A DNA stretch of 64,000 nt from Escherichia coli (GTDB taxonomy: Bacteria; Pseudomonadota; Gammaproteobacteria; Enterobacterales; Enterobacteriaceae). The stretch lies in the NCBI RefSeq assembly GCF_045037415.1, contig NZ_CP173438.1; one strand, written 5' to 3'. Position 1 is the first letter of the stretch. Each line of letters begins with the position of its first letter. Below are positions 32,410 to 32,425 of the stretch, in pieces. Below the pieces are notes generated by a model that saw only the letters and a program-made list of their open reading frames with translations, was not told the DNA's origin and searched no databases. A program made the translations under genes and the position numbers.

Positions 32410-32425
32410 GGCAAAAGGCGTGCCA
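32410..32425 (-). promoter_or_regulatory. Sigma-54 promoter (-24/-12) upstream of lafB
   Basis: Minus strand reads TGGCAC-gcctt-TTGCC, about 33 nt upstream of the lafB ATG. Confidence 0.55.

Follow-up and report, generated by a model that had tools for sequence, protein, structure and literature searches.

Introduction

The lateral-type flagellar locus Flag-2 of Escherichia coli strain 042 is reportedly the subject of work by Ren et al. in 2005. Liu et al. (2015) cite that work for the locus in their report on E. coli PCN033, which gives sigma-54 sites of the form TGGCAC-N5-TTGC upstream of lfgB and lafB and infers control by LafK and sigma-54 (PMC4578781). In described lateral systems, LafK and sigma-54 drive the class II genes, including the lateral sigma-28 gene fliA_L, and sigma-28 drives the late genes (PMC4481668, PMC3658858, PMC3930126). 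In Vibrio parahaemolyticus an RpoN site is predicted for lafB, and an rpoN mutant shows lower lafBCD expression by quantitative reverse-transcription PCR (PMC9817140). Here we analyze the region upstream of the filament cap gene lafB in a 64-kb segment of an E. coli chromosome that contains Flag-2 (RefSeq contig NZ_CP173438.1; this whole stretch of 64,000 nucleotides is referred to as the window). We put at roughly 0.85 the probability that a class II lateral-flagellar RpoN promoter at this position serves lafB-lafC-lafD-lafE-lafF-lafS (in the ancestral operon, lafT-lafU as well) and acts independently of lafA, the flagellin gene.

The E. coli Flag-2 reports deal with this locus and these two sites, and already infer that LafK and sigma-54 are in control. 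Where available, their text gives the core consensus only (PMC4578781); an inverted-repeat dyad, a site matching the consensus of integration host factor (IHF), a promoter at 48445-48459, conservation across species and the insertion sequence (IS) elements of this strain are added here. The core sites are already known, and the conserved enhancer architecture is a modest addition. The limited literature searched yielded no account of the dyad, the third promoter or any binding site for LafK, an absence that is not proof of novelty, and the main text of a Yersinia pseudotuberculosis RpoN chromatin immunoprecipitation sequencing paper holds no Flag-2 detail.

V. parahaemolyticus has the same gene order, lafA followed by lafB to lafS, lafT and lafU, and a sigma-54-type site TAGGCACGTATCTTGCGAT upstream of lafB (also fliD_L), with lafBCD dependent on rpoN. 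In both species the late flagellin promoter is of the sigma-28 type. A preliminary description of this stretch had drawn the analogy with Vibrio, and the literature bears it out for LafK/sigma-54 control of class II (PMC4481668) and for the effect of rpoN on lafBCD (PMC9817140).

The -24/-12 motif upstream of lafB

The 5' end of the lafB transcription unit comprises the following features.

32410-32426, minus strand: predicted sigma-54 core promoter TTGGCACGCCTTTTGCC, with the -24 GG at 32424-32423 and the -12 GC at 32412-32411
32398-32400, minus strand: predicted transcription start, ~12 nt 3' of the -12 GC, from standard sigma-54 geometry and the sequence
31062-32378, minus strand: lafB (fliD-like filament cap protein, 438 aa), first gene of the operon, from open reading frame (ORF), RefSeq and Pfam

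The preliminary description had placed TGGCAC-N5-TTGCC on the minus strand at 32425-32410, about 33 nt upstream of the lafB ATG. Letters and coordinates match, and 32 nt are counted between the C of TTGC and the ATG (32378-32376). The motif TGGCACGCCTTTTGC (32411-32425) is made up of TGGCAC (32425-32420), the N5 spacer GCCTT (32419-32415) and TTGC (32414-32411), followed by C at 32410, and its minus-strand context reads TATTGGCACGCCTTTTGCCAATAA. It fits all 10 specified core positions, with the GG and GC doublets exactly 10 bp apart, and it is intergenic, on the coding strand and a short distance 5' of its gene. The predicted 5' untranslated region of ~21 nt contains a GGAG Shine-Dalgarno sequence (32388-32385), 7 nt before the ATG. 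The gene product belongs to the FliD family of filament cap proteins (Pfam FliD_N and FliD_C); RefSeq annotates the gene fliD, and by position it corresponds to lafB. The sigma-54 gene itself, rpoN, is present in E. coli and lies outside the window.

Exact TGGCAC-N5-TTGC occurs twice in the window against an expectation of 0.13, and none of 100 shuffles reached two. Both matches are on the coding strand directly upstream of the first gene of a flagellar run (lafB, lfgB), and they have the two highest sigma-54 scores in a weighted consensus scan of the window, the lafB site ranking second. When two mismatches are allowed, the 76 matches found show no excess over the 84 expected; since the relaxed pattern is at chance frequency, only exact matches are informative. 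A 15-nt consensus can itself arise by chance, and lafB might then be expressed by read-through from lafA or from a sigma-70 promoter, for which there is a weak match (9/12) at 32403-32374. The excess of exact matches speaks against this, and the sigma-70-like match overlaps the start codon, leaving no credible sigma-70 candidate for lafB. A plus-strand terminator call on TATTGGCAAAAGGCGTGCCAATA was also rejected, as a by-product of the TGGCA/TGCCA pseudo-symmetry of the core; orthologues keep the -24 and -12 bases, not the pairing.

Conservation of the core across species

Conservation was assessed in 80 loci, one per species, whose LafB relatives are 29-98% identical. Distant LafB sequences came from a representative search, and the locus search used a seven-sequence LafB alignment. 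For each locus, the highest-scoring sigma-54-type match within 300 nt upstream of the gene was taken, and a motif was called at a score of at least 14 of 16.6. By this measure a sigma-54-type motif precedes the lafB orthologue in 63 of the 80 loci, compared with 1/80 on the opposite strand and 2/80 in coding sequence. The form TGGCAY-N5-TTGCW is seen in Escherichia, Pseudocitrobacter, Citrobacter, Phytobacter, Leminorella, Enterobacter, Lelliottia, Cedecea, Kluyvera, Pantoea, Tatumella and Pseudomonas, and in most Vibrionaceae. Bases flanking the core diverge freely between orthologous loci in the alignment, and retention of the motif in so many species against this background is a further argument against a chance match. 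Escherichia strains whose promoter regions are only 89-93% identical keep both the TGGCAY-N5-TTGC core and the dyad arms, and one Escherichia lineage has TGGCAT/TTGCT.

Sigma-54 without core polymerase is often a weak binder. This may explain one of the observations that weigh against the assignment, namely that purified RpoN alone gave no electrophoretic mobility shift of the V. parahaemolyticus lafB promoter (PMC9817140). Others are that 17 of the 80 loci, most of them betaproteobacterial, lack the motif, and that the base following TTGC upstream of lafB is C, where the consensus prefers A or T (W). Judged on position, frequency and conservation, the motif is very probably a genuine, conserved sigma-54 promoter of the lafB operon.

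One record in the sample, CACSKA010000002.1 (L020), is titled 'Chryseobacterium sp. 18061', and its LafB locus and promoter are near-identical to those of Citrobacter sp. 18056 (L022). It is probably mislabelled or contaminated.

The lafB operon and its separation from lafA

The genes downstream of lafB and the elements lying between it and the start of lafA are listed below. REP and BIME denote repetitive extragenic palindromic sequences and bacterial interspersed mosaic elements, respectively.

30647-31039, minus strand: lafC (FliS)
30331-30642, minus strand: lafD
29273-30334, minus strand: lafE (FliK-like)
28798-29265, minus strand: lafF (FliL-like)
28062-28778, minus strand: lafS (FliA, lateral sigma-28)
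25494-27280, minus strand: distal genes of the ancestral operon, the lafT remnant (motA, MotA-like), which ends at 27280, and lafU (MotB-like; 25494-26417)
27281-28037: IS1-family element (~757 bp) with a 9-bp target duplication, TATTTTTTG, after codon 4 of lafT (ATG 28049)
32513-32538, minus strand: terminator-like hairpin CAACACCGCC-TGTG-GGCGGTGTTG followed by TGCTTTCT, predicted end of the lafA transcription unit
32560-33991, plus strand: IS1397 (IS3 family, 1432 bp, 3-bp target duplication), in the REP-unit loop of the lafA-lafB BIME
35183-35209, minus strand: sigma-28-like lafA promoter TTAAGTTT-N11-GTCGTTTT; lafA is at 34223-35137

By RefSeq annotation of the closest records and by Pfam, the genes 3' of the lateral flagellin gene are ordered fliD-fliS-lafD-fliK-fliL-fliA-motA-motB. 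The preliminary description had proposed a single lafB-lafU unit. The part from lafB to lafS stands, its genes being tightly packed with intergenic gaps of at most 22 nt; lafT is interrupted here by IS1, so that lafT and lafU are cut off from the promoter and lafB-lafS alone is still contiguous. The junction of this insertion with lafT recurs in 55 of 5426 complete genomes, and the probable effect is that the lateral stator genes are inactive or no longer coupled to the promoter.

The further proposal, that lafB begins a sigma-54 operon separate from the flagellin gene, agrees with the conservation of the core and of its upstream module, with the presence of LafK, and with a terminator and a second promoter that belong to lafA. 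In IS-free strains the 409-bp lafA-lafB spacer holds BIME/REP units, followed by the terminator hairpin and finally the promoter module. The hairpin has a folding energy of -30.2 kcal/mol (z = -3.6), which none of 200 shuffles equalled, and GGCGGTGTT followed by a T-run is seen in most enterobacterial orthologues in the alignment. On the other side of lafA, a sigma-28-like block ~45-75 nt upstream of the gene is conserved in 56 loci. The corresponding pattern, derived post hoc, has just two matches in the window, the lafA block and a site upstream of lfgK (39871-39898, minus strand). Because lafA has its own conserved sigma-28-like promoter, and a terminator hairpin follows it, the two units would be transcribed separately.

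Both the strong terminator 5' of the motif and the 1.4 kb of antisense IS1397 that also separates the two genes oppose expression of lafB by read-through. Together with the frequency and conservation of the motif, they make a chance match, with lafB served from lafA or by sigma-70, extremely improbable. IS1397, which prefers REP loops as targets, is rare at the lafA-lafB site, being present there in just 2 of 5426 complete E. coli genomes. Its distance from the T of TGGCAC is 134 bp on the upstream side, beyond both dyad and terminator, so that the promoter module is untouched, and its transposase reads away from lafB.

The lafA and lfgK promoters share the form TTAAGWWT-N11/12-GYCGYTTT. The -10 part of the lafA block (GTCGTTTT or GCCGCTTT) is unlike the E. 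coli FliA consensus GCCGATAA, a divergence that, judging from these sequences, may reflect the specificity of LafS. A candidate sigma-54 site upstream of lfgK, TGGCACCCGGTTTAC at 39904-39918, was rejected: it has no -12 GC and abuts a REP, and the sigma-28-like pattern fits better.

The dyad, the IHF-consensus site and LafK

Upstream of the lafB core lie, in order, an A-tract, an IHF consensus, an inverted-repeat dyad and the strong hairpin described above. The presumed cognate enhancer-binding protein, LafK, is encoded in the window.

32443-32455, plus strand: IHF-consensus site AATCAATAGATTG (WATCAANNNNTTR), exact, between the dyad and the -24 element; predicted to bind IHF
32465-32481: dyad CGGAAACGTCATTTCCG (GGAAR-N5-YTTCC), candidate LafK upstream activating sequence, 40 bp 5' of the T of TGGCAC
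60700-61686, minus strand: lafK, 328-aa sigma-54 enhancer-binding protein (Sigma54_activat 1.2e-63, AAA lid, C-terminal HTH_8)

The exact pattern GGAAR-N5-YTTCC is found three times in the window against 0.2 expected, every time upstream of a sigma-54-like site: 40 bp from the lafB core, 51 bp from the lfgB core and 40 bp from a third site. At lafB, 23 bp separate the dyad from a weaker half-site repeat, TTTCCGCC, on its upstream side. Among the 63 motif-bearing orthologous lafB promoters, 62 have the dyad with at most one mismatch (control, 0/63). In Vibrionaceae its spacing to the core is exactly 51 bp; Enterobacterales and Pseudomonas have 38-45 bp. The arms are fixed, an invariance that is partly by construction, as dyads were chosen at no more than one mismatch; the 5 bp at the centre are uninformative, and no covariation is seen at the inner pair (A/C 15, A/T 12). 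Fixed arms, a free centre, absence of covariation and fixed spacing argue for a protein-binding site rather than an RNA hairpin. The latter was rejected, the arms being invariant in sequence and free of compensatory changes.

The IHF consensus is present with at most one mismatch in 32 of the 63 orthologous promoters, in 25 of them at one fixed position, compared with 4.7% of composition-matched shuffles and 0/63 coding-sequence controls. The upstream activator site and the IHF site of a sigma-54 promoter are represented here by the dyad and this consensus, with LafK and IHF as their presumed binding proteins. In one locus, that of E. coli 2015C-3101 (L207), the dyad segment is tandemly duplicated as two extra 23-bp units (alignment columns ~176-221), so that the candidate activator site is present in additional copies in front of lafB.

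LafK has the Walker A sequence GETGAGKE, an intact GAFTGA motif and no N-terminal regulatory domain, and its closest solved structures are FlrC, NifA, NtrC1 and FleQ. For activators of this type, the normal binding mode is a dimer of Fis-type helix-turn-helix (HTH) domains on an inverted repeat, which makes LafK the most economical candidate for the dyad. That the dyad is a LafK enhancer is plausible, and we consider it somewhat more likely than not. Three points weigh on the other side: the assignment to LafK comes from co-occurrence alone, the centre of the dyad at ~-74 is nearer the core than many textbook sigma-54 enhancers, and a simple terminator scan flags CGGAAACGTCATTTCCG as a small hairpin followed by a T-run. 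The dyad might then accompany a real core as a minor terminator, or be bound by another protein, and a second regulator, LafZ, which contains Trans_reg_C, is indeed encoded in the locus. Against LafZ as the binder, winged-helix domains of the OmpR type generally recognize direct and not inverted repeats. A role in termination is hard to reconcile with arms that lack compensatory changes, A/C at the inner pair being as common as A/T, or with a distance from the -24 element that is fixed across families at 40 or 51 bp, one helical turn apart. The coding region of lfgA contains one of the dyads, on the opposite strand, and a further one follows lfgN. Finally, the dyad is kept in Vibrio and Pseudomonas loci, and LafZ is described as a feature of flag-2 absent from flag-1 (PMC6993521). 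A binder other than LafK, or some other role for the dyad, is therefore judged unlikely.

With LafK as the activator, we infer the following course of events in E. coli. The sigma-54 holoenzyme would form a closed complex on GG (32424-32423) and GC (32412-32411), while LafK would occupy the dyad GGAAA-N5-TTTCC, centred ~74 bp upstream of the start site. IHF, bound at its consensus between dyad and core, would bend the DNA, and the AAA+ domain of LafK would remodel the complex through GAFTGA, with transcription starting near 32399. Since lafS, the lateral sigma-28 gene, is in the lafB operon, the promoter would link LafK to the late sigma-28-type promoters of lafA and lfgK.

Comparison with other sigma-54 promoters

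Classic sigma-54 promoters with an IHF bend include E. coli pspA (activated by PspF), Klebsiella nifH (NifA) and glnHp2 (NtrC). The lafB promoter resembles them in having an inverted-repeat activator site, an IHF site and a GG-N10-GC core, together with an AAA+ GAFTGA activator that has a C-terminal Fis-type HTH; like PspF, LafK is without a regulatory N-terminal domain. It differs in its single strong dyad near -74 with a weak distal half-site, where the textbook cases have pairs of sites at ~-100 to -150, and GGAAR-N5-YTTCC is unlike the recognition sequences of NtrC, NifA and PspF. The FleQ- and FlrA-dependent class II polar promoters of Pseudomonas and Vibrio likewise belong to a sigma-54 flagellar hierarchy with a dedicated bacterial enhancer-binding protein, and the AAA+ domain of LafK is closest to FlrC and FleQ among solved structures. 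However, those systems serve another flagellum and use another activator, and the described binding sites of FleQ and FlrC have other sequences and positions than the dyad. Within the lateral systems, Vibrionaceae differ from E. coli in the distance of the dyad from the -24 element (51 bp compared with 40 bp) and of the core from the start codon (~70-85 nt compared with 32 nt).

Sister promoters and a metagenome signature

The other two dyads in the window belong to the following candidate promoters.

46785-46865, minus strand: lfgB promoter, with core TGGCACGGCGATTGC (46785-46799) 37 nt before the ATG at 46747, and dyad GGAAATAAAACTTCC (46851-46865)
48390-48459, plus strand: third promoter, with dyad GGAAACGGATTTTCC (48390-48404) and, 40 bp on, CGGCACGCTTATTGC (48445-48459)

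The lfgB core sits in the 81-bp intergenic region between the divergent genes lfgB and lfgA, and its dyad, 51 bp 5' of the core, falls within the first codons of lfgA. The third promoter lies 35 nt before the ATG (48495) of a gene for a 310-aa protein without Pfam domains, which is followed by one for an 812-aa GT2 glycosyltransferase. Promoter and genes are in the variable region of Flag-2, where the dyad follows lfgN. A further sigma-54-like site at 52016-52032, with a near-dyad at 51994-52008, was rejected: it overlaps REP-like sequence, has the wrong spacing (8 bp) and is 383 nt from the next gene.

Metagenome contigs were scanned for the composite of dyad and core, GGAAR-N5-YTTCC-N36-53-TGGCAY-N5-TTGC, which gave at least 121 matches on at least 120 contigs. 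Among the matches listed, the gene immediately downstream encodes LafB in 13 cases (32-99% identity), LfgB in nine (63-99% identity, with a dyad-core spacing of 51-53 bp) and other lateral-flagellar or glycosylation proteins in about eight. One of the listed matches precedes a homologue (44% identity) of the 48495 protein, at locus L179; there this gene and lfgB are each preceded by a separate composite, and the stretch is syntenic with the window from lfgB to the glycosyltransferase. By inspection, the listed matches also include two lafD-position genes, two cytidylyltransferases, a Maf-like (MptE-like) gene beside flagellin and a FliM-like gene, and the rest look like chance or unrelated sigma-54 genes (glnB-like, amt-like). 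The identity of the downstream genes makes the composite a signature of lateral-flagellar promoters.

In two metagenome loci, L182 and L196, the composite lies inside the lafB operon, directly 5' of a 111-aa lafD-position gene after lafC, which suggests an internal promoter in these relatives. In three others (L171, L124 and L201) it is upstream of cytidylyltransferase homologues and of the Maf-like gene beside flagellin. The matching cytidylyltransferase of the window is at 54823-55218 (minus strand), at the end of the lafK-lfiEFGHIJ run. Such placements hint that flagellin-modification genes share a regulon with lafB.

We consider slightly more likely than not the general proposal that GGAAR-N5-YTTCC is the LafK recognition site, placed 40 or 51 bp from the -24 element with IHF in between, and that dyad plus core would define the LafK regulon across Enterobacterales, Vibrionaceae and Pseudomonas. 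This regulon would include lfgB, lafB, flagellin-modification genes such as the pair at 48495-51912 (a protein of unknown function and a glycosyltransferase) and, in some taxa, internal promoters before lafD-like genes.

Flag-2 in this strain

The Flag-2 locus is flanked in the window by ecp/hsd/proAB on one side and dinB/yafP on the other. Its minus-strand gene order is lfgB to lfgL, then lafW; lafZ is on the plus strand, and lafA, lafB, lafC, lafD, lafE, lafF, lafS, lafT and lafU follow. The closest complete record is NZ_OZ040716.1, relative to which the window has two extra IS1 copies.

The promoter could be real and under past selection, yet transcriptionally silent in E. coli or in this strain, with Flag-2 decaying. 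The two IS insertions in the Flag-2 of this strain weigh in this direction, lafT being split by IS1 and IS1397 lying between lafA and lafB, and the promoter region is found in only 1275 of 5426 complete E. coli genomes. Inactivating mutations are reported, such as the lfgC frameshift in strain 042 (PMC4578781), and enterobacterial Flag-2 clusters have been called non-functional (PMC4481668). However, from the dyad to the Shine-Dalgarno sequence the module is undamaged and does not differ from that of IS-free strains, and the closest RefSeq record has unbroken ORFs for lafK, lafS, lfgC and the structural genes. Across divergent E. coli, core and dyad arms are kept while neighbouring bases vary. 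Silence is accordingly considered quite unlikely, and it would concern the activity of the element and not its identity as a sigma-54 promoter.

Several Flag-2 intergenic regions, namely lafA-lafB, lfgJ-lfgK, lfgD-lfgE and the region upstream of lafK, are filled with REP/BIME elements (33992-34220, 39917-39957, 43009-43046, 45038-45195 and 61809-61849). A second IS1, at 11087-11854, is absent from the closest RefSeq record and interrupts hsdS, which encodes the specificity subunit of a type I restriction-modification system.

Conclusions

The call that lafB begins a sigma-54 operon distinct from that of lafA appears correct, and the core re-derives a published annotation. Beyond the core, the conserved dyad, at a spacing locked to the helical phase, is a concrete candidate for the LafK enhancer. 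Dyad and core together would let the LafK regulon be predicted from sequence, including glycosylation genes of the Flag-2 variable region, and point to a lateral-flagellar regulatory design common to E. coli, Vibrio and Pseudomonas.

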